Below, in pieces: positions 21,996 through 56,745 of a DNA stretch of 64,000 nucleotides. Position numbers and translations under genes: made by a program. Positions within the stretch are counted from its first letter, which is position 1. The number at the start of each line of letters is the position of its first letter. Origin of the DNA: Escherichia coli (GTDB taxonomy: Bacteria > Pseudomonadota > Gammaproteobacteria > Enterobacterales > Enterobacteriaceae); NCBI RefSeq assembly GCF_013122565.1, contig NZ_CP053258.1, one strand, 5' to 3'. Below the pieces are notes generated by a model. The model was not told the DNA's origin. It saw only the letters and a program-made list of their open reading frames with translations, and searched no databases.

Positions 21996-21996
21996 A

Positions 21997-23268: not shown

Positions 23269-23273
23269 AACGC

Positions 23274-25346: not shown

Positions 25347-25366
25347 GTGATAGCGATTATCATTAC
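25347..25366 (-). promoter_or_regulatory. Candidate Fur box in the efeU promoter region
   Basis: gtgatagcgattatcattac; its reverse complement TAATGATAATCGCTATC resembles the Fur consensus GATAATGATAATCATTATC. Lies 60-80 bp upstream of the efeU start. Confidence 0.5.
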
Positions 25367-25831: not shown

Positions 25832-27340
<1,509 letters not shown>

Positions 27341-27528
27341 CTAAAGTCTCCAAAAAATTATTATCGGCAATGTCGAAACTTGCCGTTATATCTGCCACCG
27401 GAACGGGGTAACAGAGTTTATGTTTTACCAGGGCGACCGTATCCTGCCGGAAGCGCTGGTTATTCACAATCGATTTAACACACCATTTACATTAAATTTT
27501 AGTGCTCAGCGACACTATTTTTCATCAG

Positions 27529-27736
27529 GTTGCACTCTCTCACATTTTTTGCGGTTGCACCTTTCAAAAATGTTAACTGTCGCAGAGAAAAAGTCTGAGT
27601 TATTTTTTTAATCCCTGTCATATCGATTTCTTTTATTAACATTTCATTCATTTTTAAGCTTGCTACGCAAGTCACATTTAACATGGTTGCACAAAGTTGC
27701 AACATCGTGGATATTTCACGATAACGTTAAGTTGCA
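27529..27736. promoter_or_regulatory. put control region with multiple PutA operator sites (GTTGCA) between the divergent putP and putA genes
   Basis: GTTGCA at 27529-27534, 27554-27559, 27686-27691, 27696-27701 (part of the palindrome GTTGCAAC) and 27731-27736. PutA's RHH domain is known to bind GTTGCA. Confidence 0.7.
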
Positions 27737-27762
27737 CCTTTCAGAACAACAGGAGTAATGGC

Positions 27763-30700
27763 ATGGGAACCACCACCATGGGGGTTAAGCTGGACGACGC
27801 GACGCGTGAGCGTATTAAGTCTGCCGCGACACGTATCGATCGCACGCCACACTGGTTAATTAAGCAGGCGATTTTTTCTTATCTCGAACAACTGGAAAAC
27901 AGCGATACTCTGCCGGAGCTACCTGCGCTGCTTTCTGGCGCTGCCAATGAGAGCGATGAAGCACCGACTCCGGCAGAGGAACCACACCAGCCATTCCTCG
28001 ACTTTGCCGAGCAAATTTTGCCCCAGTCGGTTTCCCGCGCCGCGATCACCGCGGCCTATCGCCGCCCGGAAACCGAAGCGGTTTCTATGCTGCTGGAACA
28101 AGCCCGCCTGCCGCAGCCAGTTGCTGAACAGGCGCACAAACTGGCGTATCAACTGGCCGATAAACTGCGTAATCAAAAAAATGCCAGTGGTCGTGCAGGA
28201 ATGGTCCAGGGGTTATTGCAGGAGTTTTCGCTGTCATCGCAGGAAGGCGTGGCGCTGATGTGTCTGGCAGAAGCGTTGTTGCGTATTCCCGACAAAGCCA
28301 CCCGCGACGCGTTAATTCGCGACAAAATCAGCAACGGTAACTGGCAGTCACACATTGGTCGTAGCCCGTCACTGTTTGTTAATGCCGCTACCTGGGGGCT
28401 GCTGTTTACTGGCAAACTGGTTTCCACCCATAACGAAGCCAGCCTCTCCCGCTCGCTGAACCGCATTATCGGTAAAAGCGGTGAACCGCTGATCCGCAAA
28501 GGTGTGGATATGGCGATGCGCCTGATGGGCGAGCAGTTCGTCACGGGCGAAACCATCGCGGAAGCGTTAGCCAATGCCCGCAAGCTGGAAGAGAAAGGTT
28601 TCCGTTACTCTTACGATATGCTGGGCGAAGCCGCGCTGACCGCCGCAGATGCACAGGCGTATATGGTTTCCTATCAGCAGGCGATTCACGCCATCGGTAA
28701 AGCGTCTAACGGTCGTGGCATCTATGAAGGTCCGGGCATTTCAATCAAGCTGTCGGCGCTGCATCCGCGTTACAGCCGCGCCCAGTATGACCGGGTAATG
28801 GAAGAGCTTTACCCACGTCTGAAATCACTCACCCTGCTGGCGCGTCAGTACGATATTGGTATTAACATCGATGCCGAAGAGGCCGATCGTCTGGAGATCT
28901 CCCTCGATCTGCTGGAAAAACTCTGTTTCGAGCCGGAACTGGCAGGCTGGAACGGCATCGGTTTTGTTATTCAGGCTTATCAAAAACGCTGCCCGTTGGT
29001 GATTGATTACCTGATTGATCTCGCCACCCGCAGCCGTCGCCGTCTGATGATTCGTCTGGTGAAAGGCGCGTACTGGGATAGTGAAATCAAGCGTGCGCAG
29101 ATGGACGGCCTTGAAGGTTATCCGGTTTATACTCGCAAGGTGTATACCGACGTTTCTTATCTTGCCTGTGCGAAAAAGCTGCTAGCGGTGCCAAATCTAA
29201 TCTACCCGCAGTTCGCGACGCACAACGCCCATACGCTGGCGGCAATTTATCAACTGGCAGGTCAGAACTACTATCCGGGTCAGTACGAGTTCCAGTGCCT
29301 GCATGGTATGGGCGAGCCACTGTATGAGCAGGTCACCGGGAAAGTTGCCGACGGCAAACTTAACCGTCCGTGTCGTATTTATGCTCCGGTCGGTACACAT
29401 GAAACGCTGCTGGCGTATCTGGTGCGTCGCCTGCTGGAAAACGGTGCTAACACCTCGTTTGTTAACCGTATTGCCGACACCTCTTTGCCACTGGATGAAC
29501 TGGTCGCCGATCCGGTCACTGCTGTAGAAACACTGGCGCAACAGGAAGGGCAAACTGGATTACCGCATCCGAAAATTCCCCTGCCGCGCGATCTTTACGG
29601 TCACGGGCGCGACAACTCGGCAGGGCTGGATCTCGCTAACGAACACCGTCTGGCCTCGCTCTCTTCTGCCCTGCTCAATAGTGCACTGCAAAAATGGCAG
29701 GCCTTGCCCATGCTGGAACAACCGGTAGCGGCTGGTGAGATGTCGCCCGTTATTAACCCTGCGGAACCGAAAGATATTGTGGGCTATGTGCGTGAAGCCA
29801 CGCCGCGTGAAGTAGAACAGGCGCTGGAAAGTGCGGTTAATAACGCGCCAATCTGGTTTGCCACTCCTCCGGCTGAACGCGCGGCAATTTTACATCGCGC
29901 TGCCGTGCTAATGGAAAGCCAGATGCAGCAACTGATTGGTATTCTGGTGCGTGAAGCCGGAAAAACCTTCAGTAACGCCATTGCCGAAGTGCGCGAAGCG
30001 GTCGATTTTCTCCACTACTACGCCGGACAGGTGCGGGATGATTTCGCTAACGAAACCCACCGTCCATTAGGGCCTGTGGTGTGTATCAGTCCGTGGAACT
30101 TCCCGCTGGCTATTTTTACCGGGCAGATCGCTGCCGCACTGGCGGCAGGTAACAGCGTGCTGGCAAAACCGGCAGAACAAACGCCGCTGATTGCCGCGCA
30201 AGGGATCGCCATTTTGCTGGAGGCGGGTGTACCGCCAGGCGTGGTGCAATTGCTGCCAGGTCGGGGTGAAACCGTGGGCGCGCAACTGACGGGTGATGAT
30301 CGCGTGCGCGGGGTGATGTTTACCGGTTCAACCGAAGTCGCTACGTTACTGCAACGCAATATCGCCAGCCGCCTGGACGCTCAGGGTCGCCCTATTCCGC
30401 TCATCGCTGAAACCGGCGGCATGAACGCGATGATTGTCGATTCTTCAGCACTGACCGAACAAGTCGTAATAGATGTGCTGGCCTCGGCGTTCGACAGTGC
30501 GGGTCAGCGTTGTTCGGCGCTGCGCGTGCTGTGCCTGCAAGATGAGATTGCCGACCACACGTTGAAAATGCTACGCGGCGCAATGGCCGAATGCCGGATG
30601 GGTAATCCGGGTCGCCTGACCACCGATATCGGTCCGGTGATTGATAGCGAAGCGAAAGCCAATATCGAGCGTCATATTCAGACCATGCGTAGCAAAGGCC

Positions 30701-31725
30701 GTCCGGTGTTCCAGGCGGTGCGGGAAAACAGCGAAGATGCCCGTGAATGGCAAAGCGGCACCTTTGTCGCCCCGACGCTGATCGAACTGGATGACTTTGC
30801 CGAATTGCAAAAAGAGGTTTTTGGTCCGGTGCTGCATGTGGTGCGTTACAACCGTAACCAGCTGCCGGAGCTGATCGAGCAGATTAACGCTTCCGGTTAT
30901 GGTCTGACGCTTGGCGTCCATACGCGCATTGATGAAACCATCGCCCAGGTCACTGGCTCGGCCCATGTTGGTAACCTGTATGTTAACCGTAATATGGTGG
31001 GCGCAGTGGTTGGTGTGCAGCCGTTCGGCGGCGAAGGGTTGTCCGGTACCGGGCCGAAAGCAGGCGGTCCGCTCTATCTCTACCGTCTGCTGGCGAATCG
31101 CCCGGAAAGTGCGCTGGCAGTAACGCTCTCGCGTCAGGATGCAGAGTATCCGGTCGATGCGCAGTTGAAAGCCGCATTGACTCAGCCGCTAAATGCACTG
31201 CGGGAATGGGCAGCAAATCGTCCAGAATTGCAGGCGTTATGTACGCAATATGGCGAGCTGGCGCAGGCAGGAACACAACGATTGCTGCCAGGGCCGACGG
31301 GTGAACGCAACACCTGGACACTGCTGCCGCGTGAGCGCGTATTGTGTATCGCGGATGATGAGCAGGATGCGCTGACTCAGCTCGCCGCCGTGCTGGCGGT
31401 GGGCAGCCAGGTACTGTGGCCGGATGACGCGCTGCATCGTCAGTTAGTAAAGGCATTGCCATCGGCAGTCAGCGAACGTATTCAACTGGCGAAAGTGGAA
31501 AATATAACCGCTCAACCCTTTGATGCGGTGATCTTCCACGGTGATTCGGATCAGCTTCGCGCATTGTGTGAAGCCGTTGCCGCGCGGGATGGCGCAATTG
31601 TTTCGGTGCAGGGTTTTGCCCGTGGCGAAAGCAATATCCTTCTGGAACGGCTGTATATCGAACGTTCGCTGAGTGTGAATACCGCTGCCGCTGGCGGTAA
31701 CGCCAGCTTAATGACGATCGGTTAA
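27763..31725 (+). CDS. putA: PutA, bifunctional proline dehydrogenase / P5C dehydrogenase and transcriptional repressor
   Basis: 1320 aa from MGTTTMGVKLDDATRERIK (N-terminal RHH domain). The ORF extends upstream to 27697, but an AGGAG SD precedes the ATG at 27763. Confidence 0.95.
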   Translation: MGTTTMGVKLDDATRERIKSAATRIDRTPHWLIKQAIFSYLEQLENSDTLPELPALLSGAANESDEAPTPAEEPHQPFLDFAEQILPQSVSRAAITAAYRRPETEAVSMLLEQARLPQPVAEQAHKLAYQLADKLRNQKNASGRAGMVQGLLQEFSLSSQEGVALMCLAEALLRIPDKATRDALIRDKISNGNWQSHIGRSPSLFVNAATWGLLFTGKLVSTHNEASLSRSLNRIIGKSGEPLIRKGVDMAMRLMGEQFVTGETIAEALANARKLEEKGFRYSYDMLGEAALTAADAQAYMVSYQQAIHAIGKASNGRGIYEGPGISIKLSALHPRYSRAQYDRVMEELYPRLKSLTLLARQYDIGINIDAEEADRLEISLDLLEKLCFEPELAGWNGIGFVIQAYQKRCPLVIDYLIDLATRSRRRLMIRLVKGAYWDSEIKRAQMDGLEGYPVYTRKVYTDVSYLACAKKLLAVPNLIYPQFATHNAHTLAAIYQLAGQNYYPGQYEFQCLHGMGEPLYEQVTGKVADGKLNRPCRIYAPVGTHETLLAYLVRRLLENGANTSFVNRIADTSLPLDELVADPVTAVETLAQQEGQTGLPHPKIPLPRDLYGHGRDNSAGLDLANEHRLASLSSALLNSALQKWQALPMLEQPVAAGEMSPVINPAEPKDIVGYVREATPREVEQALESAVNNAPIWFATPPAERAAILHRAAVLMESQMQQLIGILVREAGKTFSNAIAEVREAVDFLHYYAGQVRDDFANETHRPLGPVVCISPWNFPLAIFTGQIAAALAAGNSVLAKPAEQTPLIAAQGIAILLEAGVPPGVVQLLPGRGETVGAQLTGDDRVRGVMFTGSTEVATLLQRNIASRLDAQGRPIPLIAETGGMNAMIVDSSALTEQVVIDVLASAFDSAGQRCSALRVLCLQDEIADHTLKMLRGAMAECRMGNPGRLTTDIGPVIDSEAKANIERHIQTMRSKGRPVFQAVRENSEDAREWQSGTFVAPTLIELDDFAELQKEVFGPVLHVVRYNRNQLPELIEQINASGYGLTLGVHTRIDETIAQVTGSAHVGNLYVNRNMVGAVVGVQPFGGEGLSGTGPKAGGPLYLYRLLANRPESALAVTLSRQDAEYPVDAQLKAALTQPLNALREWAANRPELQALCTQYGELAQAGTQRLLPGPTGERNTWTLLPRERVLCIADDEQDALTQLAAVLAVGSQVLWPDDALHRQLVKALPSAVSERIQLAKVENITAQPFDAVIFHGDSDQLRALCEAVAARDGAIVSVQGFARGESNILLERLYIERSLSVNTAAAGGNASLMTIG

Positions 31726-31732
31726 ACAGGTA

Positions 31733-31760
31733 GCCGGAGGATGTTACAACCTCCTCCGGC
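31733..31760. terminator. Hairpin between the convergent putA and rutR genes
   Basis: gccggagg-atgttacaac-cctcctccggc inverted repeat followed by atcttt. Confidence 0.5.
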
Positions 31761-31764
31761 ATCT

Positions 31765-32403
31765 TTAACGTGGTCGAATCCCCTCAATAATAATCCGCTG
31801 CACGTTTTCAACCGTTTGAGTGAAAAATATCTCATCGCGCAACGTCGCGCCTGTCACCGCCTCCACCTGAGGGGCGAAATCGGCGTAATGTTGAGTGGAA
31901 GCCCAAATCATAAAAATCAAATGCTGCGGATCAATCGGCGCGAGTTTGCCGCTTTTGACCCAACCGGCAATCAGCGCCGATTTCTCATCAATTAATGCCT
32001 TCAAATCGCCCGTCAGTTCATCCATTAACAACGGCGCGCCTGCCAGCATCTCCATACAAAACAGACGTGAAGCCTGCGGATAATCGCGTGAGACTTCCAG
32101 CTTAAGACGGATGTACTCTTTGATCGCCGCCAGCGGGGCGAAATCTTCACGAAACGCTTTTAACGGTGCCAGCCAGATATCGAGAATCTGCCGCAGCACG
32201 GCAATATACAGCGCCTCTTTTGACGGAAAGTAATACAGCAGATTGGTTTTTGAAACACCCGCCAACTCTGCGATCTGCTCCAGCCGTGTGCCGTGAAAAC
32301 CGAATTGTGAAAAAGTGTCCAGTGCTGCGCTAAGAATCGCTTTTTTCTTCGCGCTTACTGCGCGCGAACGTTTACCCGTTGTTTTCACTGCGCCTTGCGT
32401 CAT
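31765..32403 (-). CDS. rutR: RutR, TetR-family repressor of the rut operon (pyrimidine utilisation)
   Basis: 212 aa from MTQGAVKTTGKRSR...; TetR HTH; matches K-12 RutR. Confidence 0.95.
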   Translation of the reverse strand: MTQGAVKTTGKRSRAVSAKKKAILSAALDTFSQFGFHGTRLEQIAELAGVSKTNLLYYFPSKEALYIAVLRQILDIWLAPLKAFREDFAPLAAIKEYIRLKLEVSRDYPQASRLFCMEMLAGAPLLMDELTGDLKALIDEKSALIAGWVKSGKLAPIDPQHLIFMIWASTQHYADFAPQVEAVTGATLRDEIFFTQTVENVQRIIIEGIRPR

Positions 32404-32509
32404 GCGCTCTCCCCTCTTGTAGATTGGCAACAGGATAGCAAAACCCCCGCCCGGCCTCGACCTTCTGCACTCTCATCGCGCACGGATGCATGTTTTATGT
32501 GCAACTGTT

Positions 32510-32525
32510 TTGACCGTTTAGTCCA
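32510..32525. promoter_or_regulatory. Candidate RutR operator
   Basis: TTGACCGTTTAGTCCA resembles the RutR consensus TTGACCAnnTGGTCAA. Lies between rutR and the rutA promoter. Confidence 0.4.
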
Positions 32526-32589
32526 CTTTTTTCCAGATATTTTATATAACCCAACATTAACACATTAATAACATTCACTTTTTAAAAAC

Positions 32590-32605
32590 TGGCATCCGCT
32601 TTGCA
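32590..32605 (+). promoter_or_regulatory. Sigma54 (-24/-12) promoter of rutA
   Basis: TGGCATccgctTTGCA matches TGGCAC-N5-TTGCA with the conserved GG and GC. The rut operon is known to be NtrC/sigma54-dependent. Confidence 0.65.
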
Positions 32606-32633
32606 AACAAGCCATTACGCGGCTGAAAAGGAT

Positions 32634-34474
<1,841 letters not shown>

Positions 34475-34485
34475 GGAGTTTAACG

Positions 34486-34872
34486 ATGCCAAAATCCGTA
34501 ATTATTCCCGCTGGCAGCAGCGCACCGCTGGCCCCCTTCGTTCCCGGCACGCTGGCTGATGGCGTGGTGTATGTCTCCGGTACGCTGGCTTTTGATCAAC
34601 ATAATAACGTGCTGTTTGCCGATGACCCAAAGGCGCAAACCCGCCACGTTCTGGAAACTATCCGCAAGGTGATCGAGACGGCGGGTGGCACGATGGCGGA
34701 TGTGACCTTCAACAGCATCTTTATTACCGACTGGAAAAATTACGCCGCGATTAACGAAATCTACGCCGAGTTTTTTCCGGGTGATAAACCGGCGCGATTC
34801 TGCATTCAGTGCGGACTGGTAAAACCTGACGCGCTGGTGGAAATCGCCACAATTGCGCATATCGCCAAGTGA
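34486..34872 (+). CDS. rutC: RutC, aminoacrylate peracid reductase (RidA/YjgF family)
   Basis: 128 aa, [22 protein letters not shown]... Confidence 0.95.
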
Positions 34873-34879
34873 GGCCGCG

Positions 34880-35680
34880 ATGAAACTTTCACTCTCACCT
34901 CCCCCTTATGCTGATGCACCCGTAGTGGTGTTGATTTCGGGTCTTGGCGGTAGCGGCAGTTACTGGTTACCGCAACTGGCGGTGCTGGAGCAGGAGTATC
35001 AGGTAGTCTGTTACGACCAGCGCGGCACCGGCAATAATCCCGACACGCTGGCAGAAGATTACAGTATCGCCCAGATGGCAGCGGAACTGCATCAGGCGCT
35101 GGTAGCCGCAGGGATTGAGCGTTACGCGATGGTCGGCCATGCGCTCGGTGCGCTGGTGGGGATGCAGCTGGCGCTGGATTATCCCTCGTCGGTAACTATG
35201 CTGGTCAGCGTTAACGGCTGGCTACGAATAAACGCCCATACTCGCCGCTGTTTTCAGGTTCGCGAACGATTACTGTATAGCGGCGGCGCGCAGGCATGGG
35301 TGGAAGCGCAGCCGTTGTTCCTCTATCCCGCCGACTGGATGGCGGCCCGCGCACCTCGCCTGGAGGCAGAAGACGCGCTGGCACTGGCGCATTTTCAGGG
35401 CAAAAATAATTTACTGCGTCGACTTAACGCCCTCAAACGCGCTGACTTTAGTCACCATGCGGATCGCATCCGCTGCCCGGTGCAAATCATCTGCGCCAGT
35501 GATGATCTGCTGGTGCCATCAGCATGTTCCAGTGAACTTCATGCCGCCCTGCCCGATAGCCAGAAAATGGTGATGCGCTATGGCGGACACGCCTGCAACG
35601 TGACCGATCCCGAAACGTTTAATGCTCTGTTACTCAACGGGCTTGCCAGCCTGTTACATCACCGTGAAGCCGCCCTGTAA
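34880..35680 (+). CDS. rutD: RutD, aminoacrylate hydrolase (alpha/beta hydrolase)
   Basis: 266 aa from [26 protein letters not shown]; the ORF extends 9 codons upstream. Confidence 0.95.
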
Positions 35681-35689
35681 GGAATTGCT

Positions 35690-36280
35690 ATGAACGAAGC
35701 CGTTAGCCCAGGTGCGCTTAGCACCCTGTTCACCGATGCCCGCACTCACAACGGCTGGCGGGAGACACCCGTCAGCGATGAGACGTTACGGGAGCTTTAT
35801 GCCCTGATGAAATGGGGGCCGACATCAGCTAACTGTTCTCCGGCAAGGATCGTGTTTATCCGCACTGCAGAAGGAAAAGAACGTCTGCGCCCGGCGCTTT
35901 CCAGCGCCAATCTGCAAAAAACCCTGACCGCGCCCGTCACCGCTATCGTCGCCTGGGACAGTGAATTTTATGAACGGTTACCACTACTGTTTCCCCACGG
36001 TGATGCCCGCAGTTGGTTTACCTCCAGCCCACAACTTGCCGAAGAAACAGCGTTTCGCAACAGTTCCATGCAGGCGGCCTATCTGATCGTCGCCTGTCGT
36101 GCGCTGGGACTGGATACCGGCCCGATGTCGGGTTTTGACCGTCAACACGTAGACGACGCTTTTTTTGCAGGCAGCACGCTGAAGAGCAATCTGCTGATTA
36201 ATATCGGCTATGGCGATAGCAGCAAACTTTTTGCGCGCCTGCCACGTCTGTCCTTTGAAGAAGCCTGCGGGCTGTTGTAA
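35690..36280 (+). CDS. rutE: RutE, malonic semialdehyde reductase (nitroreductase family)
   Basis: 196 aa, [25 protein letters not shown]... Confidence 0.95.
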
Positions 36281-36290
36281 GGAGCAAACC

Positions 36291-36785
36291 ATGAACATTG
36301 TCGATCAACAAACCTTTCGCGATGCGATGTCCTGTATGGGCGCGGCAGTCAATATCATCACCACGGACGGTCCAGCCGGGCGCGCCGGGTTCACCGCCAG
36401 CGCCGTCTGCAGCGTAACCGACACGCCTCCCACATTACTGGTGTGCCTGAATCGTGGGGCGTCCGTCTGGCCGGTATTCAATGAAAATCGAACGCTGTGT
36501 GTAAATACACTTAGCGCCGGGCAGGAGCCGCTTTCAAACCTTTTTGGCGGCAAAACGCCCATGGAACACCGCTTTGCCGCCGCCCGCTGGCAGACGGGTG
36601 TGACCGGATGCCCGCAACTGGAAGAGGCACTGGTTTCGTTTGACTGCCGTATCAGCCAGGTGGTGAGCGTCGGCACCCACGACATTCTGTTTTGCGCCAT
36701 CGAAGCGATTCATCGTCACGCCACCCCCTACGGGCTGGTGTGGTTTGATCGCAGTTATCACGCGCTGATGCGCCCTGCTTGTTAA
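36291..36785 (+). CDS. rutF: RutF, flavin reductase
   Basis: 164 aa from [19 protein letters not shown] upstream; the ORF extends further upstream in frame. Confidence 0.95.
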
Positions 36786-36805
36786 CCTCCTTAAGGAGAC
36801 GGCTG

Positions 36806-38134
36806 ATGGCAATGTTCGGTTTTCCTCACTGGCAGTTAAAATCGACCTCTACAGAGAGCGGCGTGGTCGCGCCGGATGAACGATTGCCGTTTGCTCAGAC
36901 GGCAATAATGGGCGTTCAACACGCGGTGGCGATGTTTGGCGCGACGGTGTTAATGCCGATTCTGATGGGGCTGGATCCCAATCTTTCCATTTTAATGTCG
37001 GGGATCGGCACGTTACTGTTTTTCTTTATTACCGGAGGACGCGTTCCCAGTTATCTCGGCTCCAGCGCGGCTTTTGTTGGTGTGGTGATTGCTGCAACGG
37101 GCTTTAACGGCCAGGGCATTAACCCGAATATCAGCATTGCGCTGGGCGGGATTATCGCCTGTGGGCTGGTTTATACCGTCATTGGCCTGGTGGTGATGAA
37201 AATCGGTACGCGCTGGATTGAACGGCTGATGCCGCCGGTGGTGACGGGTGCGGTGGTGATGGCGATTGGCCTGAACTTAGCGCCTATCGCAGTGAAAAGT
37301 GTATCGGCTTCGGCCTTTGATAGCTGGATGGCGGTAATGACAGTGCTGTGTATTGGGCTGGTGGCGGTGTTTACCCGTGGCATGATCCAGCGGTTATTGA
37401 TTCTCGTAGGATTAATTGTCGCCTGTCTGCTGTATGGCGTGATGACCAACGTTTTAGGGATGGGAAAAGCCGTCGATTTTACTCTCGTCAGCCATGCTGC
37501 CTGGTTCGGTTTGCCACATTTTTCCACTCCTGCTTTTAATGGTCAGGCAATGATGCTGATTGCGCCCGTGGCGGTGATTCTGGTGGCGGAAAACTTAGGT
37601 CATCTCAAGGCGGTCGCCGGGATGACCGGACGCAATATGGACCCATATATGGGGCGGGCATTCGTCGGTGATGGTCTGGCAACGATGCTTTCCGGCTCTG
37701 TCGGCGGTAGCGGCGTCACCACCTATGCTGAAAATATCGGTGTGATGGCCGTGACAAAAGTCTACTCGACGCTGGTGTTTGTTGCTGCTGCCGTCATCGC
37801 CATGCTGTTGGGCTTTTCACCGAAATTTGGCGCGCTGATCCATACCATTCCGGCCGCGGTGATTGGTGGTGCATCAATTGTTGTGTTCGGGCTGATTGCC
37901 GTCGCAGGCGCAAGGATATGGGTACAAAACCGTGTCGATTTAAGCCAGAACGGTAATTTGATTATGGTCGCAGTAACCTTAGTGCTGGGCGCGGGTGATT
38001 TTGCTCTCACGCTGGGCGGTTTTACGTTGGGAGGAATCGGTACAGCAACCTTTGGCGCGATTTTACTCAATGCGTTATTAAGCAGAAGGTTGGTTGACGT
38101 TCCACCGCCAGAAGTTGTTCATCAGGAGCCATAA
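36806..38134 (+). CDS. rutG: RutG, pyrimidine (uracil) permease, NCS2 family
   Basis: 442 aa from MAMFGFPHWQLKST... Confidence 0.95.
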   Translation: MAMFGFPHWQLKSTSTESGVVAPDERLPFAQTAIMGVQHAVAMFGATVLMPILMGLDPNLSILMSGIGTLLFFFITGGRVPSYLGSSAAFVGVVIAATGFNGQGINPNISIALGGIIACGLVYTVIGLVVMKIGTRWIERLMPPVVTGAVVMAIGLNLAPIAVKSVSASAFDSWMAVMTVLCIGLVAVFTRGMIQRLLILVGLIVACLLYGVMTNVLGMGKAVDFTLVSHAAWFGLPHFSTPAFNGQAMMLIAPVAVILVAENLGHLKAVAGMTGRNMDPYMGRAFVGDGLATMLSGSVGGSGVTTYAENIGVMAVTKVYSTLVFVAAAVIAMLLGFSPKFGALIHTIPAAVIGGASIVVFGLIAVAGARIWVQNRVDLSQNGNLIMVAVTLVLGAGDFALTLGGFTLGGIGTATFGAILLNALLSRRLVDVPPPEVVHQEP

Positions 38135-38142
38135 ACAGAAAA

Positions 38143-38175
38143 CCGCCGGGATTACCGGCGGTGATGGCTTTTTGA
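38143..38175 (+). terminator. Putative intrinsic terminator downstream of rutG
   Basis: ccgccgg-gatta-ccggcgg hairpin followed by tgatggcttttt. Confidence 0.4.
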
Positions 38176-38215
38176 CGAGCTTAAGAAAAAATGCATTCGT
38201 CATTGATTAACCCGG

Positions 38216-38389
38216 CTAGTTGTCGCTTTTGCCGTGACTGCTCTTGCCACCTTTTTTACCTGCTTCAGATGCGCGCTGCGGGTCATTCTTGAAATTACCC
38301 CCGCTGTGCTGTCCACCTTTTTTACCTGCTTCTGATGCTCTTTCGCGGTCTTCTGCAAAATTGCCGGAACCGCCTCGATGGTTTGCCAT
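38216..38389 (-). CDS. ymdF: YmdF, KGG-repeat stress-induced small protein
   Basis: 57 aa from MANHRGGSGNFAEDRERASEAGKKGG...; internal RASEAGKKGG repeats. Confidence 0.85.
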   Translation of the reverse strand: MANHRGGSGNFAEDRERASEAGKKGGQHSGGNFKNDPQRASEAGKKGGKSSHGKSDN

Positions 38390-38743
38390 TACTGACCTCC
38401 GTCTGGGTATAGACATCATATTGCATAGAATTAACGCGGCGTATGGCGGCTGCCATATTTTCGCTACGTGGGACTAAGCTTAGTGAACTGACGCGGGCAG
38501 ACCAGCGTTTGGTAATATCCTGCAACAGCTTCTTAGCGAGAATAGATATCATCTCCAACAATTATCCATAAGCCACTCTTATGATTAAAAAAACGCGATG
38601 AGATAAAAATGTGTCATTTTGCGACAAAATTACGTGCTTGTGAAAGTTGTTATAAATCAAATAAGTGGTTGTGAAATTTGCACTCTGAAAAGGACGTCTT
38701 ATCTTTAAATAAGTGGTAGCGAATCGCTACGGAATAGAGATAA

Positions 38744-39358
<615 letters not shown>

Positions 39359-39378
39359 TCTTCAACAGGAGGATACGC

Positions 39379-39606
39379 ATGCCAACTCAAGAAGCGAAAG
39401 CTCATCACGTCGGTGAATGGGCATCTCTGCGCAATACGTCGCCGGAAATAGCCGAGGCCATTTTCGAAGTCGCCGGGTACGACGAAAAAATGGCAGAAAA
39501 GATTTGGGAAGAAGGTAGCGATGAAGTGTTAGTCAAAGCCTTTGCTAAGACCGATAAAGATTCGCTTTTTTGGGGCGAACAGACCATCGAACGTAAAAAC
39601 GTTTAA
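39379..39606 (+). CDS. yccJ: YccJ, small protein co-transcribed with wrbA
   Basis: 75 aa, [37 protein letters not shown]...; GGAG SD. Confidence 0.9.
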
Positions 39607-39612
39607 CCAGCG

Positions 39613-39642
39613 ACTCCCCCGCTTCTCGCGGGGGAGTTTTCT
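39613..39642. terminator. Bidirectional rho-independent terminator between the convergent yccJ and agp genes
   Basis: actcccccgc-ttct-cgcgggggagt hairpin followed by ttttctgtt. Confidence 0.65.
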
Positions 39643-39643
39643 G

Positions 39644-40885
39644 TTATTTCACCGCTTCATTCAACACGCTATCAAACTTATCCATCGGGCAGAAACCGTT
39701 GGCATCTATCGGGCAACCGCTTAATTCCAGCGTCACGCGCTGCGCAGGTGCCTGCAGGGTTAACGCATCGGCATTACGTAACTGTTCCGCACTCTGGTAC
39801 ACATACTCGATTTTCATCAAATCGCGATTGGCTTTGCTGTCATGCCAACGCTGGAAAACGATTTTGCCGCCAATCGGCGTGCGTTCGTTCTGGTCATGCA
39901 ACTGATACGGTTTGAAATCCAGCGCCGTTAACAGAGAGGCTATATTGGAGTCGTGCCCAACTAACACCGTGATTTTCGGAGCACTGGCGCGATCGGTGAC
40001 CATGGCTTTGTCGATATAACTGACCAGCGGTTTCGCAACATTGCGCGCCACTTCCGGTGAGGTAAACAGGCTGTCCTGGTAACCGTTTTTCAGCTTCGAC
40101 AATACCTTCCACTGCTGGTCAGATTTGATTTCTCCCCAGGCCACCTGATCCATCGGAAAACCTTCGTAATATTGCAAAGTAAACGCATCTACCAGCGAGT
40201 TGCCGACTTTCAGCGGCCCGGAAACACCTGGTTCTTGTTGATACTTGGCGCTAAAGGTATTTTTGCCATCCACCAGCGAACACTGTTGTTTCTCTTTACA
40301 GGCAGGGGAATCTTTATAGTTAACGATTTTTTCCAGTAGCTGGTAGCTGTCGGTAAGCTGGAGTTTGCTGAGCTCTTTCTCCATTGCAGCCACCGCCTTT
40401 TCACTGAATGCGGCGGAATCATCGGTGATCACCGGGTTAAAGGTTGGGTCCATGGTGCCCATTTTTTCCTGGTGATGCACAGGAATATCACACCCCGGGA
40501 ATGCGCCGGTAATAAAGAACTGTGCGGTCGCAACGGTACGTTGCAGACTATTGGCATAGGCATAAACGGTGTCCGGCGGCGGGCATTCCCCCGATTTCAC
40601 CATCCCCTGCTCTGCCAGCCATTCACGCATGTAATGGCCCATATACACTTCGAGCACGCCACCTTTGGTGGTGAGTTGCCCACCAGGGACGTCCCATTCA
40701 GGCCATTTATTCGGCGTCGACTGCTCCAGCACGCTGCCATTATTGGCCAGCGGCGCACGTAAGTTATGGCGGCTCATCATGAGCACTTGCTGCAGCTGAT
40801 AGCCTTCCGGTACGGTTTGTGCCTGAGCGTTTGAAGCGAGTAAAACTATCCCTGCCACAGCTGCGGCGATTAGCGTTTTGTTCAT
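39644..40885 (-). CDS. agp: Agp, periplasmic glucose-1-phosphatase (histidine acid phosphatase)
   Basis: 413 aa from [29 protein letters not shown] active-site motif. Confidence 0.95.
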
Positions 40886-44012: not shown

Positions 44013-44612
44013 TTATCTGTTTTGGTGGTCGCACTCCACTAACACCAGCAATAACTGGCTTAGTGCCGCGTAAAAACCAAAGCTGTCATGCTGATGGCAA
44101 CGCGCAGCAAACTCTGGTAACCATTGCCGCAGCGCCGTCAGTGTTTTTTGCCGCAAACTGTCGATTCTTCGCGCAGGAACGGTCCCCTCTCCCAGCGAAA
44201 AATGCAGATGGCTGAGCAACTCGAGATAGATCGCCAGATGGTCTGCCGGTTCGTTGAAATTGCCGCTGGTTTCCATCCCTGCCTCAACTAACAAGCGTTT
44301 AATCTCTTGCTCGTCCTGTTTGTAGGCCGATGCATACGGCAGCGCAGCTTGTTTGTCGGTCATCAGAAACAGGCCGCAAAAGTCAGCGGCCAGTTCCAGA
44401 CGGGCATCGTCACGTACTGTCAGAGTGGCAATACGGTTTTCCAGCTCATTCACCGCCGCAGTGAGCGGCGGTTCGCTTTTCAGCAACGAAAACCATTCAG
44501 CCATCTGCGCACTGGCGATTTGCGTCAGTTGTTCATCGTCCAGTTCACAGGAGAACAACTGCGCCAGCCAGGCGTAAACACAGGCAATCTGTTGTGCTGT
44601 CAGCGTGGTCAT
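44013..44612 (-). CDS. torD: TorD, TorA-specific chaperone
   Basis: 199 aa from [20 protein letters not shown]... Confidence 0.95.
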
Positions 44613-47155
44613 GATTTCACCTGCGACGCGGGAACATATTCGCACTGCGCCACCATCTCCACGGGGCCGTTAAACGCCGTCACCTGCTCCACTGTTCCGT
44701 TGTACTTCTCAATTTCCACCAGCGTAGTGTGCGCACTGGTCGCCTGCGCCAGCTGCGAAGTACCGATGTCGATGGTCAACACGTTGGGGTTACCGTATTT
44801 GCACAGCGCACCAGGCTCGCCGCCTTTATCTGGATCGTACCATGCCCCTTCGTGAATTCGTGCCACGCCGGGTGCATAGCGGTCAGAAACCACTGCCCCT
44901 GCCAACACCTGACCGCGAGCGTTAAAGACGCGTACCACATCACCGTGACGAATACCGCGCGCGCTGGCATCCTGCGGGTTAATGAACACTGGCTCTTTAC
45001 CCGCTACCGTATATTGCTGACGCAGCGTTTCCGACTCACATAACTGCGAGTGAAGTCGAAAATCCGGATGCACAGATTGCAGATGCAACGGATACTTCTG
45101 CGAGCCTGGCCCACCGTGGGAGCGTTCGATTTTCTCAAACCACATCGGATGCCCCTGACAATCGTCGTAGTTCATATCGGCGATGGTTTTCGAGTAGATC
45201 TCAATCAGGCCACTCGGCGTGCCCAGCGGTTCGAGATCCGGATCTTCGCGGAATGCCTGGTGGCGAACAAACATCTGCGGATGGTCAAACTCGACGTACT
45301 CTTTGTTATTCCAGAAGTCATCAAACGCTGGCAGATGAACGCCGCGTCCTTTGCCTTGTTGTACACCTTCCTGCCAGATGCGTTTCAGCCAGCCCATTTC
45401 GTCCAGCCCTTCGGTAAAGGCTTCTTCGCGATTAAAGCGACGGCACAGCTCGCGGAAAATATCAAAGTCGTTGCGCGCCTCGAACTGCGGCGGCACCACC
45501 TGTTTCATGGCGATAATGCCACGGTTGGAGTGGTTGCCGTACTGGTCGAGATCGTTACGCTCAAACTGCGTGGTCGCAGGCAGCACGATATCGGCAAAGC
45601 GGCAAGTTGAGGTCCACTGGTTATCTATGGCGATAACCGTTTCCAGCTTGCGCCAGCCTTCAATAATGCGGTTGATCTGCTGATGGCGATGGAATGGGTT
45701 AGTTCCGGCAAAAATACACATTTTCAGTGGCGGCAGTTTTACCGATTTACCGTTCCAGTTGATCACTTTCCCCGGTTCGAGGATCGCATCGATAAAACGG
45801 GCAATCGGAATGGTGCTGCTGTAGCCTTTGTAATCACTGTTGTCGTGAACAGGCGGAATCGACGTAGAGCCGGAGAAACCACTCAGAATAACGCCTTTAC
45901 GCCCCGGCGTGCCTGCGCCGTTATAGTGCCAGCCAAAACCAAAGCCACCACCTGGCAGGCCAATTTGCCCCAGCATCGCCGCCAGAACCACAATCATCCA
46001 CGCCCACTGTTCACCGTGCTGCATACGCTGTACGCACCAGCCAGCAATAATCTGCGTTCTGTTCGCCGCCATCTGGCGCGCCAGCCCACGAATGGTTTCG
46101 GCATCAATGCCGGTCAGTTTTTCAGCCCATGCGGCATCTTTCGGCTGACCGTCTTTCTCACCCAGCAGGTACGGCAGGAACTGCTCAAAACCTACACAGT
46201 AGTTAGCGAGGAAGTTTTTGTCGTACAGGTTTTCACTGTACAGCGTATACGCCAGCGCCAGTTGCAGCGGCACGTCAGTTTGCGGGTTAACCGCTATGTG
46301 CTTCACATGCTCGCGCCCCAGATACTCATGGGTGGATGTGACAACCGGATCGATGCTGATGACCTCAATTTCACCGGCGGCGACTTTCGCTTTTAGCTGC
46401 TCGTAATATTCATAAACATCGTGATCCGGGCACCACCAGTTCGCTTGCTGGTTTTTCAGCAAATCGGAGCCCCACAGCACAATGGTTTTGCTGTTCTGCA
46501 ATACCAGCGGCCAGGAGGTTTGCTGTTCATACACTTCCATTGAGCCAACCACGCGCGGCAGGATCACCTGCGCAGCACCGGTAGAGTAATCTCCGCCCGT
46601 ACCAACGCTATTACCATGCAAGGCAATAGCTTTCGCCAGCATCCCCGAAGCGTTATGGAACATCCCCGTCGATTGCCAACCACTGGCGGTCAGCAAGGCA
46701 CTCGGCCCGTGAGTTTTCTGTACGCGTTCCAGTTCTTCATAGAACATGTCGAGGGCTTCATCCCAAATCACGCGCACAAAACGGTTATCACCGCGCTGGG
46801 AGGTATCGCTGAGATGGCGCTTACGCAGCCAGTCCACGCGTACCATCGGATAACGAATACGCGCCGCGTTGTGTACGTGATCCGGCAATCCGGCAATCAT
46901 TTTCGAGGGATATTTATCCAGTTCGAACGGTTTTGCCGCCACAAAGCGACCATCCTTCACCGTCGCGCGGATAGCCCCCCAGTGCGACCCGGTAAGAATG
47001 CCCTCTTTCGAGATGACAGCCTCAGTCGCCGCTTGCGCCGCAGTCGCACGGCGCGGCGTTAACAATGACGGCCCCAGCATCCCGGCGACGGTTAAGCCGC
47101 CGAGTTGTGCCAGAAAACGCCGACGTGATGCCTGAAAGAGATCGTTATTGTTCAT
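44609..47155 (-). CDS. torA: TorA, periplasmic TMAO reductase (molybdoenzyme)
   Basis: 848 aa; Tat signal [20 protein letters not shown]. Confidence 0.95.
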
Positions 47156-48327
47156 TATTTTTCTTCCTTCTTATCGCCGTGAGCCTTACCTGCGGTGTCA
47201 GACGCATTCATTTGCAGATATTTCAACAAGGTGCGTTCTTCACGTTTATCGAGGCTGGTAAAGCCAATCATGCCGTTGAGCGTGCCAATCCAGCCGTTAG
47301 CGTCAAAGTGAGAGATTTCCGGTGCGCCGTGGCACTGGTTACAGGTGCCGTTGTACAGCGAATCAGCATAAGCCCAGATCGGTTTGATATCGTTCACCAT
47401 GTCGCCTTTCTTCATCCACGCAGTGGCCTGCAACTTGCTCCACTCGGTATTGGTGTCGGCAACGGTGGTTTTCTCCAGCGTTTTCACCTGCTGCTGCACA
47501 TCACCACGAATCGAGGCAACAAAGATGCGTTTACCTGGGAATTGGGTGAGTACACGCTGACGTCCGGCACTTTCTGTCCAGCCGGTAATTTCAATTTGCA
47601 GCCAGTCGCCGTCACGTTTAAGGACTTTCACTTCCGAAGCAGGCAGCAGAGAACCAGAGGCTTCTTTATCACCTTTCGCCGCATAAATCGGCTTAATATC
47701 AATAGAGTACAGCGTGTCACCACTGTCATTAGCACTGGCGCGCAGCTCATCGAACTGCTTACGGAAGCCGCTACTCATATCCGGCAACTGGTGGGCAATA
47801 CCTTTATGACAGTCGATGCAGGATTGATTATCTTTCGCTGCCACCTTCATCTGACGTGCCGCTTCAGGATGCTGCTTCGCATGATCCATCGCGTCGTAGT
47901 TATGGCAGGAGCGGCAGGTTGCCGAGTTGTTTTCTTTCATTCGCGCCCATTCACGCTCGGCAAGTTCCGCGCGTTTGGCTTCGAATTTTTCAGGTGTATC
48001 AATGGAGTGAGCAATAAAGGTCTGGTAGATATCATTGCTCGCTTCCAGTTTGCGCTTCACCATGCCTGGAATATCCGGCGGGATATGACAGTCATGGCAT
48101 TCAGCTCGCACGCCGGAGGCGTTCTGGAAATGCACCGACTGTTTATATTCTTCATACACCGGTTGCATACTGTGGCAACTGACACAAAATTCGGTTGTGC
48201 TGGTGACTTTGATCCCAACGTGTGGCAATACAATCAGCGCAATGCCAATCACAATCCCAATAGCGACCAGCGCCAGTACCGACCAACGAGCACTGGGTCG
48301 GCGTAGCGCGTTCCAGAGTTTCCGCAT
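47155..48327 (-). CDS. torC: TorC, pentaheme c-type cytochrome
   Basis: 390 aa from MRKLWNALRRPSARW; five CxxCH motifs (CVSCH, CHDCH, CRSCH, CIDCH, CNQCH). Confidence 0.95.
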   Translation of the reverse strand: MRKLWNALRRPSARWSVLALVAIGIVIGIALIVLPHVGIKVTSTTEFCVSCHSMQPVYEEYKQSVHFQNASGVRAECHDCHIPPDIPGMVKRKLEASNDIYQTFIAHSIDTPEKFEAKRAELAEREWARMKENNSATCRSCHNYDAMDHAKQHPEAARQMKVAAKDNQSCIDCHKGIAHQLPDMSSGFRKQFDELRASANDSGDTLYSIDIKPIYAAKGDKEASGSLLPASEVKVLKRDGDWLQIEITGWTESAGRQRVLTQFPGKRIFVASIRGDVQQQVKTLEKTTVADTNTEWSKLQATAWMKKGDMVNDIKPIWAYADSLYNGTCNQCHGAPEISHFDANGWIGTLNGMIGFTSLDKREERTLLKYLQMNASDTAGKAHGDKKEEK

Positions 48328-48375
48328 AATAGCCCCTGTAAAATTATGGTTTAGTGAAGCGATCTTAATGAGCAA

Positions 48376-48438
48376 ATATGAACAGCGGCACTGGTCAGCA
48401 TGAACGGCTTACGGCAGAATATGAACAGATATGAACAG
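48376..48438 (-). promoter_or_regulatory. Four tor boxes (TorR binding sites) in the torR-torC intergenic region
   Basis: The + strand carries atatgaacag at 48376-48385, 48419-48428 and 48429-48438, plus a degenerate catgaacgg at 48399-48407. These are reverse complements of the tor box CTGTTCATAT. Confidence 0.75.
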
Positions 48439-48456
48439 AATGAGTAAAACCCTCTG

Positions 48457-49149
48457 ATGCCACATCACATTGTTATTGTTGAAGATGAGCCGGTTACCCA
48501 GGCGCGATTACAATCCTACTTCACTCAGGAGGGGTATACCGTTTCCGTTACGGCGAGCGGTGCCGGGCTACGGGAAATTATGCAGAATCAGCCGGTGGAT
48601 TTAATTCTGCTGGATATCAACTTGCCCGATGAAAATGGCCTGATGTTAACCCGCGCCCTGCGAGAACGCTCAACGGTGGGGATTATTCTGGTTACCGGAC
48701 GCAGCGATCGGATTGACCGTATTGTCGGGCTGGAAATGGGCGCAGACGATTACGTCACCAAACCGCTGGAACTGCGCGAACTGGTAGTACGGGTGAAAAA
48801 TCTGCTCTGGCGAATCGACCTCGCGCGACAGGCGCAACCGCACACTCAGGACAACTGCTATCGCTTTGCGGGTTATTGCCTGAATGTGTCGCGCCATACG
48901 CTGGAGCGGGATGGCGAGCCGATTAAACTGACCCGCGCAGAGTATGAAATGTTGGTGGCATTTGTGACCAATCCGGGCGAAATTCTCAGCCGTGAACGTC
49001 TGCTGCGTATGCTCTCTGCGCGTCGGGTGGAAAACCCTGACCTGCGCACCGTCGATGTGTTAATTCGTCGTTTACGCCATAAACTCAGCGCGGATTTACT
49101 GGTGACGCAACATGGCGAAGGTTATTTCTTAGCCGCTGATGTGTGCTGA
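48457..49149 (+). CDS. torR: TorR, OmpR-family response regulator
   Basis: 230 aa, MPHHIVIVEDEPVTQARLQSYF... Confidence 0.95.
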   Translation: MPHHIVIVEDEPVTQARLQSYFTQEGYTVSVTASGAGLREIMQNQPVDLILLDINLPDENGLMLTRALRERSTVGIILVTGRSDRIDRIVGLEMGADDYVTKPLELRELVVRVKNLLWRIDLARQAQPHTQDNCYRFAGYCLNVSRHTLERDGEPIKLTRAEYEMLVAFVTNPGEILSRERLLRMLSARRVENPDLRTVDVLIRRLRHKLSADLLVTQHGEGYFLAADVC

Positions 49150-50150
49150 TAAAAATAGACCGGACGAAATCCCCCTGGCGACAGCGAGCGGCGGATATGT
49201 TCACGGTCGGCATTTTTCGGCGTCAGAACTAAAATCGGTGGGCTGACATTATCAGACACCGGTTGCCCCTGTAATTGCCTGATGGCTTGCTCAACCGCCA
49301 GTTCCCCCTGCCAGACCATTTGATCGCTGGCAGCCATAATCACTCTTCCCCGCTTCAGCCCGCGATACACCTGATGTGAAAGATAAAACGACACCACGGT
49401 AAGCGGCGTTTTCAGGTTACGCCCTTCCCCCATTGCCGCCTCTGCCGCAATGGCCGTTCCGGCAACGACGTCGATTTCTGGATGGCGTTCCAGCATCTCC
49501 TGCAACAGGTTACGCTGGATTTCAATATCGTTATCACCAAGCGCAATATCAACAATACGCACCGGGCTTCCGGCAATGGCTGCGCGAAAACCCTCGACCA
49601 TCTCTTTACTGCCCCCGGCGTTATCGGGTCCGGGCATCAACAGCACGTTCAGTGGTTTACCGTGCGCCCATTGCACCAAATATCGCCCAGGTTGATAGCC
49701 CATCTGAAACCAGGGCACACCAACGCGGCTTTTCACCTGGGGATCATCAAGAGCATTTACCAGTTCGATCACCGGCAGATTTGCTACCTGCTTTTGCAGA
49801 TCGGGAAATGAGGTCGTGCTACTACCGAGTAAAATGGCCTCTGCGCCCCACTGTTTACACTGGTCGATTTGTGCTTGCTGGGTAGCCAACTGGCTGTAGC
49901 CGCCTGCCTCCAGCACTTTTAAATCCACACCGTAGCGGCGAGCAGCCTCCTGCATACCATAGTTCAACGATAACCAGTATGAATCTTTCAGGCTGGGATA
50001 AAGCGCGCACAGTTTCCATGCGCGTTTGGCTTTAAGCGGCATAGAGGCTTGCACCGTGAAATGCTGCGCATCATGCCAGCGCAACAGGTTATCAGCCGAA
50101 AATGCCGGCAACATGAAAAGGGAAAGAAGTAAAAATAGCAGTACGCGCAT
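49122..50150 (-). CDS. torT: TorT, periplasmic TMAO-binding protein
   Basis: 342 aa; signal peptide; 3' end overlaps torR by 28 bp (convergent). Confidence 0.95.
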
Positions 50151-50232: not shown

Positions 50233-52977
50233 GTGAATTTAACCCTGACCCGAAGACTCTGGATGGGCTTTGCCCTGATGGCGCTGTTAACCCTGACCAG
50301 TACCCTGGTGGGATGGTACAACCTGCGCTTTATCAGCCAGGTGGAAAAAGACAACACTCAGGCATTGATTCCTACCATGAATATGGCACGCCAGTTGAGC
50401 GAAGCCAGCGCCTGGGAACTTTTCGCCGCGCAGAACCTGACCAGTGCCGATAACGAAAAGATGTGGCAGGCGCAGGGGCGAATGCTCACCGCACAAAGCC
50501 TGAAGATTAATGCGTTGCTGCAAGCGTTACGGGAACAAGGTTTTGATACCACCGCTATTGAACAACAGGAGCAGGAGATCTCCCGTTCGTTACGTCAGCA
50601 AGGGGAACTGGTGGGGCAGCGTTTGCAACTGCGCCAGCAACAACAGCGACTCAGTCAGCAGATAGTCGCCGCCGCCGATGAGATCGCACGCCTGGCGCAA
50701 GGTCAGGCGAATAATGCGGCAACCTCCGCCGGAGCGACCCAGGCCGGGATTTACGATTTGATCGAACAAGATCAGCGTCAGGCTGCTGAAAGTGCACTCG
50801 ATCGGCTGATTGATATCGATCTTGAGTATGTTAACCAGATGAATGAACTGCGCCTTAGCGCTCTGCGGGTGCAGCAAATGGTGATGAATCTGGGGCTGGA
50901 GCAGATCCAGAAAAATGCACCAACGCTGGAAAAGCAGCTCAATAATGCGGTGAAAATTCTGCAACGTCGGCAAATACGCATTGAAGATCCGGGAGTTCGT
51001 GCGCAGGTCGCAACAACGTTAACTACCGTTAGCCAATATAGCGATCTGTTGGCGCTGTTCCAGCAGGACAGTGAAATCAGCAATCACCTGCAAACTCTCG
51101 CCCAAAATAATATCGCCCAGTTCGCGCAGTTTAGTAGCGAAGTCAGTCAGCTGGTCGACACCATTGAGCTGCGCAATAAGCATGGACTGGCGCATCTGGA
51201 AAAAGCCAGTGCACGCGGGCAATACAGCCTGTTATTGCTGGGGATGGTTTCACTTTGCGCACTGATTCTGATCCTCTGGCGCGTGGTTTATCGCTCAGTC
51301 ACGCGTCCACTTGCCGAACAAACGCAGGCGCTGCAACGCTTACTGGACGGTGATATCGACTCCCCTTTCCCGGAAACCGCTGGCGTACGGGAGCTGGATA
51401 CCATCGGGCGGCTGATGGATGCGTTTCGCAGCAGTGTTCATGCACTGAATAGCCACCGCGAACAGCTGGCGGCGCAGGTCAAAGCGCGTACAGCTGAATT
51501 GCAGGAACTGGTGATAGAACACCGACAGGCACGGGCGGAAGCAGAAAAAGCCAGCCAGGCAAAATCGGCGTTTCTGGCGGCGATGAGCCATGAGATCCGC
51601 ACACCGCTGTACGGTATTCTCGGCACCGCACAGCTACTGGCAGATAACCCCACACTTAACGCCCAGCGTGATGATTTGCGGGCAATTACTGACTCTGGTG
51701 AATCGTTGCTGACCATCCTCAACGATATTCTCGATTATTCCGCTATCGAAGCAGGTGGCAAGAATGTTTCGGTCAGCGATGAGCCCTTTGAACCGCGCCC
51801 GCTGCTGGAAAGTACCCTGCAATTAATGAGCGGACGGGTGAAAGATCGCCCGATTCGCCTGGCAACGGCAATTGCCGATGATGTACCGAGCGCGTTAATG
51901 GGCGATCCGCGACGTATTCGTCAGGTTATAACCAACCTGTTGAGCAACGCCCTGCGTTTTACTGACGAAGGGCAGATCGTTTTACGTAGCCGCACTGATG
52001 GCGAGCAATGGCTGGTCGAAGTGGAAGACAGCGGCTGCGGTATTGATCCCGCGAAACTGGCAGAAATCTTCCAGCCATTTGTGCAGGTAAGCGGCAAACG
52101 CGGCGGCACCGGGCTGGGGCTGACTATCAGTAGCCGTCTGGCCCAGGCGATGGGCGGCGAACTGAGCGCCACCAGCACGCCGGAGGTTGGAAGCTGTTTT
52201 TGTTTACGCTTGCCGTTACGTGTTGCCACGGCACCCGTGCCAAAAACAGTCAATCAGGCGGTACGTCTTGACGGTTTACGTTTGCTGTTAATTGAAGATA
52301 ACCCGCTAACCCAGCGAATTACCGTTGAGATGCTGAACACCAGTGGTGCGCAGGTTGTTGCTGTTGGCAATGCCGCGCAGGCTTTAGAGACACTGCAAAA
52401 TAGCGAACCGTTTGCTGCCGCACTGGTGGATTTTGATCTGCCGGATATCGACGGCATTACGCTTGCCCGACAACTGGCACAGCAATATCCGTCGCTGGTT
52501 TTGATTGGCTTTAGCGCCCATGTCATTGACGAAACGCTGCGCCAGCGTACCAGTTCATTATTCCGCGGGATTATCCCTAAACCGGTGCCGCGTGAAGTGC
52601 TCGGTCAGTTACTGGCGCACTATCTCCAACTGCAAGTCAATAACGATCAATCGCTGGATGTATCGCAACTCAATGAAGATGCTCAGTTAATGGGGACGGA
52701 GAAGATCCACGAATGGCTGGTATTATTTACACAACATGCCCTGCCGCTTCTCGATGAAATCGACATTGCCCGCGCCAGTCAGGATAGCGAGAAAATAAAG
52801 CGTGCCGCGCATCAGCTAAAAAGCAGTTGCTCGAGTCTGGGAATGCGTATCGCCAGCCAGCTATGCGCACAACTGGAGCAGCAGCCATTATCTGCCCCCC
52901 TTCCACACGAAGAAATTACACGCAGTGTTGCCGCTCTTGAAGCATGGTTGCATAAGAAAGACCTGAACGCGATTTGA
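50233..52977 (+). CDS. torS: TorS, hybrid sensor kinase
   Basis: 914 aa from a GTG start ([13 protein letters not shown]...); HisKA (AMSHEIRTP), receiver and HPt domains. Confidence 0.9.
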
Positions 52978-55234: not shown

Positions 55235-55447
55235 TTGTCCCGTAAAATGACAGGAATTGTCAAAACCTTTGATCGCAAAAGCGGCAAAGGATTCATTATC
55301 CCCTCCGACGGTCGTAAAGAAGTCCAGGTCCATATTTCCGCATTCACTCCCCGCGACGCAGAAGTGCTTATACCAGGATTACGCGTGGAATTTTGTCGCG
55401 TAAATGGCCTGCGAGGACCAACAGCGGCAAATGTTTATTTGTCTTGA
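55235..55447 (+). CDS. cspH: CspH, cold-shock-like protein
   Basis: 70 aa, [33 protein letters not shown]... Confidence 0.9.
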
Positions 55448-56745
55448 TGGAGAGCGCACGCCGGTATGCGTGCTTCATTCACGATTTGCGTAAAACCGGC
55501 CAACGAACACATGCCCTGCGCATTTCGCTCTTCACATCCTGCCAGGGTCAGTTTCACCTCTCCGGGCGGCGTATTTAATGACAGCGGCGTTTTATCACGC
55601 ATCTGCTGTAAAGTCTGGAAGACCAGCGAAACCTGAATCCACTGGCTGTTATCGCTTAGCCGACGCCAGCGTTCAAACACCAGTTCTCCACCTGGCGGCG
55701 TGTTATCCGGCTGACCTGGAAGCGTCCAGTTGAGCTCCAGTGCGCCGCCGAGATTTGCCAGATTAGTATCGTGTCCGGCGATAAACAGCACTGCTGTGGG
55801 TAATGTCACACCATACGCCTGTTTTTGCGGTGGATGGGGCGTCAACGCTGCCATGATCAAATCCAACAACGGGGTGGCGCGGCTGCGGGCAACCTCTGGC
55901 GTGCGTTGTAGTAAATAAAATTGCGCGTTATGCAAACTTAGCAAGGTGTTCCACTGGTGTGAATCAGTGATCCTTCCCCACCCCGGCTCCGGCATTCCTT
56001 GTGCCTGTTGCAGGAGAAATATCTCCGTCAGCATTGATGCTAGGCTTACCGCACCGGTTAATGAGACATTGTCGGCGCTCACCTTGAGTTCCGATGGTAA
56101 TGCCTGCGTTAATGAACAGCTTTCGTCCTGTTTCTCACGGTTAAGGCACAATTTTGATTGCGGAAAATTAAGCACCCGTTCCAGTTCGCGAAACGCCGTT
56201 TGCCGATGCCCGGTAAAGTCAGCAATTGATCCTCCTGCCCTGCTGAGGATCGCGTCAGTCACGTTCGCGTTATCCAGTTGGCAAACGCCAGTTTTTAGAG
56301 GATTAAATAACGGATCGGGACTGGACGTATCTGCCTGGGTATGTACGGTTATTGCACAGTCAGGTGCCAGCCCGGCGGCGAAGGCTTCGCCTGTTTTACG
56401 GGTACGCTCGTCGACATCAGCAATAATCGCGACCTGACCAAGCTGCGGGCAGCCCTTTTTCGTCAGCAATCCGTCGGCTACCAGACGCTGGCGTTGGTAA
56501 TGTCCGAGATAGGCGATCAGCTCACCACCGCGCGGTGTCAGCCAACCCAGTTTTACCGGCCAGGTTGGCCATGCGTCTGGGGTGACATCCTGCATCAGTT
56601 GCGTGGCCTTGGTTGGTGCACGCACACCATGACGACTGACAATCACCACACTTTCCAGCTTCAGCTCCGGCTCACTCTGAGCGAATGCAGATTGCGGGGT
56701 TAACGGAATCAGAAGAGATAAAAATGGGATCAAGATCGCTTTCAT
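55435..56745 (-). CDS. appA: AppA, periplasmic acid phosphatase/phytase
   Basis: From [29 protein letters not shown] motif. The C-terminus appears to differ from the K-12 protein as I recall it, and the 3' end overlaps cspH by 13 bp. Confidence 0.9.

Follow-up and report, generated by a model that had tools for sequence, protein, structure and literature searches.

What are the four short direct repeats that lie between the divergent genes torR and torC in this stretch of Escherichia coli DNA, and does the one unusual base within them matter? A sequence-only reading of the window (the whole stretch analysed, 64,000 nt in length) had described four direct repeats on the torC strand, one of them degenerate, spanning 48376-48438 and matching the established array of TorR binding sites. 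An exact search of the whole 64 kb located three perfect copies of CTGTTCATAT on the minus (torC) strand and no further exact copy elsewhere in the window; all three share one strand inside 63 bp, and a degenerate fourth copy, box3, lies in phase with them (Table 1). The range originally given coincides exactly with the outer limits of the array, box4 at one end and box1 at the other. Box3 was recovered both by a repeat finder and by the looser pattern YYGTTCATNY, and was absent from a search for CTGTTCATAT that allowed up to two mismatches because it matches the consensus at only 7/10 positions. Start-to-start spacing of the boxes, as returned by the repeat finder, is 10, 21 and 22 bp, and the end of box4 is separated from the ATG of torC by 48 nt.

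Table 1. Coordinates of the tor boxes, the putative promoter elements and the tor genes in the window.
Feature	Position	Strand	Description
tor box1	48429..48438	-	CTGTTCATAT; most distal from torC and closest to torR; identical to K-12; invariant in 13 enterobacterial sequences
tor box2	48419..48428	-	CTGTTCATAT; abuts box1; identical to K-12; invariant in the 13-sequence alignment
tor box3	48398..48407	-	CCGTTCATGC, degenerate; CCGTTCATCC in K-12; differing base at box position 9, window 48399
tor box4	48376..48385	-	CTGTTCATAT; promoter-proximal; identical to K-12
Putative torC -10 hexamer	48362..48367	-	TAAGAT; 8 nt downstream of box4; cross-genus conservation
Putative torR promoter	48392..48420	+	TGGTCA (48392-48397), 17-nt spacer, CAGAAT (48415-48420)
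torC	47155..48327	-	Pentahaem c-type cytochrome, first gene of torCAD; NF011606 equivalog, 883 bits; one substitution relative to K-12
torA	44609..47155	-	TMAO reductase; equivalog match and K-12 comparison
torD	44013..44612	-	TorA-specific chaperone; equivalog match and K-12 comparison
torR	48457..49149	+	OmpR/PhoB-family response regulator of the boxes; NF008034 equivalog, 429 bits
torT	49122..50150	-	Periplasmic TMAO-binding protein; equivalog match; 3' end overlaps the torR 3' end
torS	50233..52977	+	Hybrid sensor kinase, GTG start; equivalog match

The placement of the repeats in the torR-torC intergenic region is borne out by the open reading frames, by equivalog matches and by the annotation of matching genomes: the proteins encoded on either side are TorR and TorC equivalogs by score, the N-terminus of TorC reads MRKLWNALRR, and torA and then torD come next. 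The cognate regulator is encoded intact nearby, together with TorS and TorT, and all six tor proteins (TorR, TorC, TorT, TorS, TorA and TorD) score above their NCBIfam equivalog cut-offs, retain K-12 lengths with 1 to 16 substitutions, and contain no internal stops. Only S46P separates this TorR from that of K-12; residue 46 (of 230) belongs to the N-terminal half of the protein and falls outside the box-binding C-terminal domain (domain assignment per PMC9239176). The 28-bp convergent overlap of torR and torT, also reported from the sequence alone, was found at 49122-49149 and comprises the same 28 bp in K-12 (record positions 1057262-1057289); Providencia alcalifaciens shares the same overlap, and in Edwardsiella ictaluri the two genes lie without overlap. 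The strain thus possesses a complete, apparently functional TMAO respiration regulon with a textbook operator.

Alignment to the torC promoter of K-12, which had been proposed as a check, was base-for-base: the 181-nt stretch 48300-48480 aligns without gaps to E. coli K-12 MG1655 with three single-base differences, and the boxes are neither shifted nor absent, with box3 a single base off. Over the 10.5 kb of the tor locus, identity between the window and K-12 is ~98.4%. Two of the three differences fall in the torC leader, where the window agrees with an O157 strain and with other Escherichia species and it is K-12 that deviates; the third is at position 9 of box3 (window 48399), where the window has G and K-12 has C. 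The claimed match to the established TorR array is upheld in that boxes 1, 2 and 4 are identical to those of K-12 and agree with the published sequences, given as CTGTTCATAT for these three boxes and CCGTTCATCC for box3 (PMC9239176). Whilst the degenerate box had been seen correctly, it had gone unnoticed that its allele is CCGTTCATGC and not that of K-12.

Repeats of this kind might in principle have arisen by chance, or through a slippage-derived tandem duplication, with no regulatory role: box1-box2 is a perfect 10-bp tandem duplication such as slippage could produce, and six unrelated contigs of gut MAGs also contain the corresponding 20-mer by chance. The latter came from a scan of the box1-box2 20-mer against one genome per species, which returned 20 loci; those six (Bacteroidales, Lachnospiraceae, Clostridia and Synergistaceae MAGs), having no further boxes and no tor context, were taken as chance matches, and 14/20 are torR-torC intergenic regions, belonging to Escherichia (coli, albertii, whittamii), Salmonella (arizonae, diarizonae), four Edwardsiella, three Providencia and two Grimontia species. 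Against an origin by chance or slippage stands the expectation of 0.18 copies of CTGTTCATAT per 64-kb window, with three or more copies in 0/100 dinucleotide-preserving shuffles. Against it, too, stands conservation: between torR and torC the arrangement of four boxes persists from Escherichia as far as Grimontia, a genus of the Vibrionaceae, whilst the surrounding non-box sequence diverges. Family searches confirmed both TorR and TorC in Edwardsiella ictaluri and Providencia alcalifaciens and, in Grimontia marina, TorR; downstream of the boxes in this last species a tetrahaem-type cytochrome N-terminus was read. Box order, the 10/21/22 spacing and TAAGAT 8 nt downstream of box4 are kept in Escherichia, Salmonella, Edwardsiella and Providencia, and Grimontia keeps the boxes and their spacing, with TACTAT replacing TAAGAT at the same offset. 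The invariant elements of the 13-sequence alignment comprise, besides box1 and box2, the GTTCA core of box3, TGAC-AGT between box3 and box4, TTCATATTT of box4, and TAAGATC, which begins 8 nt past box4. Providencia vermicola (locus around 2200-2280) provides the sole exception to the spacing, with box2 and box3 separated by 31 instead of 21 bp; the additional 10 bp, themselves a fifth box-like element, TTATTCACAT, amount to exactly one helical turn, which is what a requirement for helical phase would predict. Published TorR binding, shown for K-12 and Salmonella, also speaks against chance or slippage (PMC9239176, PMC5934670), genomic SELEX in E. coli having returned no TorR target other than the torR/torC spacer, whether acetyl phosphate was present or not (PMC5934670). 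Conservation and published binding data together refute an origin without regulatory role, leaving it a vanishingly small probability.

Judged by its sequence and position, its spacing and conservation, and the intactness of its partner genes, the array is almost certainly the TorR operator serving the divergent torR and torCAD promoters, and its form is the canonical one for E. coli. As a finding this operator is already known: it is a textbook set, and only the rare base change in box3 is out of the ordinary.

Several other decamers resembling the boxes were considered. Two cryptic half-sites were rejected as TorR sites: CTGCCGTAAG, in the box2-box3 interval, matches the consensus at 4/10 positions, and CTGACCAGTG, which overlaps the end of box3, matches at 6/10 and is outside the 10-11 bp register. 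At 48388-48397, in the box3-box4 interval and outside the named boxes, CTGACCAGTG shows next to no variation from Escherichia to Providencia, a conservation that would be better explained by a torR -35 (TGGTCA on the torR strand) than by a TorR site. Far from the tor locus, two one-mismatch copies, TTGTTCATAT, lie inverted and 92 bp apart at 20123-20132 (minus strand) and 20215-20224 (plus strand), at the pgaC/pgaD junction and within pgaD, and are probably chance matches in coding sequence.

How the boxes relate to the two promoters has to be approached through conservation, since a simple consensus scan of 48250-48550 called no sigma-70 promoters and no terminators on either strand. Such a miss would be expected of an activator-dependent promoter, and we infer the hexamers of both torC and torR. 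TAAGAT would be the -10 of torC, with box4 immediately upstream and no usable -35 in the promoter, and the predicted torC start would fall at about 48354-48355 on the minus strand. An activator box directly upstream of the -10, with no usable -35, is the usual arrangement for OmpR/PhoB-family activators. The putative torR promoter matches at 8/12 hexamer positions, against a scan threshold of 9, and predicts a torR start near 48427, inside box2; a start at that position would explain the repression of torR by TorR bound at box1-box2, just as a torR -35 in the box3-box4 spacer would explain the strong conservation of that spacer. Modest support is lent by the cross-genus alignment to a torC -10 at 8 nt past box4, to a conserved box3-box4 spacer that may double as the torR -35, and to an accumulation of natural variation at box3. 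Promoter anatomy is absent from PMC10845959.

The mechanism that best accounts for the locus takes its affinities, autoregulation and cooperativity from the literature. TorR, a regulator of the OmpR/PhoB type encoded next door, would bind direct repeats of CTGTTCATAT, with box1-box2 acting as a high-affinity site that TorR would occupy with or without phosphorylation; because box1-box2 would cover the torR transcription start, torR would be repressed by its own product whether TMAO is present or not, a negative autoregulation cited in PMC9436347. Sensing of TMAO by TorT and TorS would lead to phosphorylation of TorR, and additional TorR molecules would then fill the weaker box3 and box4 cooperatively, these two boxes being placed two helical turns apart on the same helix face as box1-box2. 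TorR bound at box4, 8 nt upstream of the putative torC -10, would then recruit RNA polymerase, and torCAD would be transcribed. Work attributed to Ansaldi in 2000 reportedly established box1-box2 as the high-affinity site, covering the torR start, and box3 and box4 as low-affinity sites; the sites are said to be required on the same helical face, and phospho-TorR is said to bind cooperatively.

Given such a scheme, the G at window 48399 could be read as the mark of an operator that is present and yet functionally changed: the C-to-G substitution in box3 might alter cooperative TorR binding and the inducibility of torCAD, and it could alter the strength of the torR promoter as well, because 48399 lies 2 nt downstream of the putative torR -35. 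The allele is certainly rare, with the exact 83-bp array bearing box3 G found in 1/5,416 matching complete E. coli genomes, that of the canine isolate Eco_24-2013, and nearly all other matching complete genomes one or two bases off the array of the window. Box3 in phase with box4 is moreover needed for induction, and it varies in other E. coli lineages too: in E. coli O157:H7 TR01 it reads CCATTCATCC, with A for G in the GTTCA core that is invariant elsewhere, which makes box3 the polymorphic box within the species. Set against a functional change, however, the GTTCA core is unaltered in the window, all the tor genes are intact with no sign of decay of the system, and position 9 is itself off consensus in K-12 and changes with the genus between C, G and T, with Edwardsiella ictaluri and E. 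hoshinae carrying the same G as the window. Because position 9 is non-consensus already in K-12 and varies between genera, an effect of the G allele is unlikely and neutrality is to be expected. A functionally changed operator is therefore judged highly improbable, and we very much doubt that the G allele measurably retunes the TMAO system in this lineage; were it to do so, a base situated both in a low-affinity TorR site and in the inferred torR promoter spacer could shift the TMAO induction threshold, or how far induction varies from cell to cell.

Outside the tor locus, at 55445-55456, the window lacks ~9.06 kb that is present in K-12, the group 4 capsule cluster made up of etk, etp, gfcEDCBA and IS1D. 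In consequence cspH and appA meet or overlap at their 3' ends, and other sequence stands in place of the final 9 nt of K-12 appA; strain PapM-32-1 is arranged in the same way. Positions 1-12300, upstream of dgcT and pgaABCD, hold a chaperone-usher fimbrial operon, an SDR oxidoreductase, a winged-helix regulator and an EAL-domain gene, and this part is variable, with only 375/5,426 complete E. coli genomes covering 80% or more of the initial 20 kb. For 40001-64000 no complete E. coli RefSeq genome is at least 99% identical (the best reaches 98.6%), and for 20001-40000 only 2 complete E. coli RefSeq records reach 99%; so few close genomes point to a sparsely sampled Escherichia/Shigella lineage. 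Different genomes give the best match in different parts of the window (PapRG-04-4, HKUOPY1, PapM-32-1), suggestive of a mosaic history for the sequence.

Amongst known systems the closest is the torR-torCAD region of K-12 itself, known from Simon et al. (1995) and Ansaldi et al. (2000), which shares with the window the same locus, the four boxes, their order and 10/21/22 spacing, the 48-nt distance to the ATG and the 28-bp torR/torT overlap, and differs from it in box3 (CCGTTCATGC in the window, CCGTTCATCC in K-12) and in two bases of the torC leader. [quoted passage not shown] Salmonella subspecies arizonae and diarizonae have a box geometry identical to that of the window, whereas their inter-box and leader sequences diverge and their box3 is CCGTTCATTC or CCGTTCATCC in the two subspecies. 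A more distant parallel is offered by the pho boxes of PhoB and the sites of OmpR, where a winged-helix response regulator binds head-to-tail on direct repeats ~10-11 bp apart, close upstream of the -10 hexamer of a promoter without a good -35. TorR scores as a relative within the OmpR/PhoB family and the tor array is similarly a direct-repeat operator near a -10; however, regulator and consensus are different, and in tor only box1 and box2 adjoin, box3 and box4 each standing two helical turns apart.
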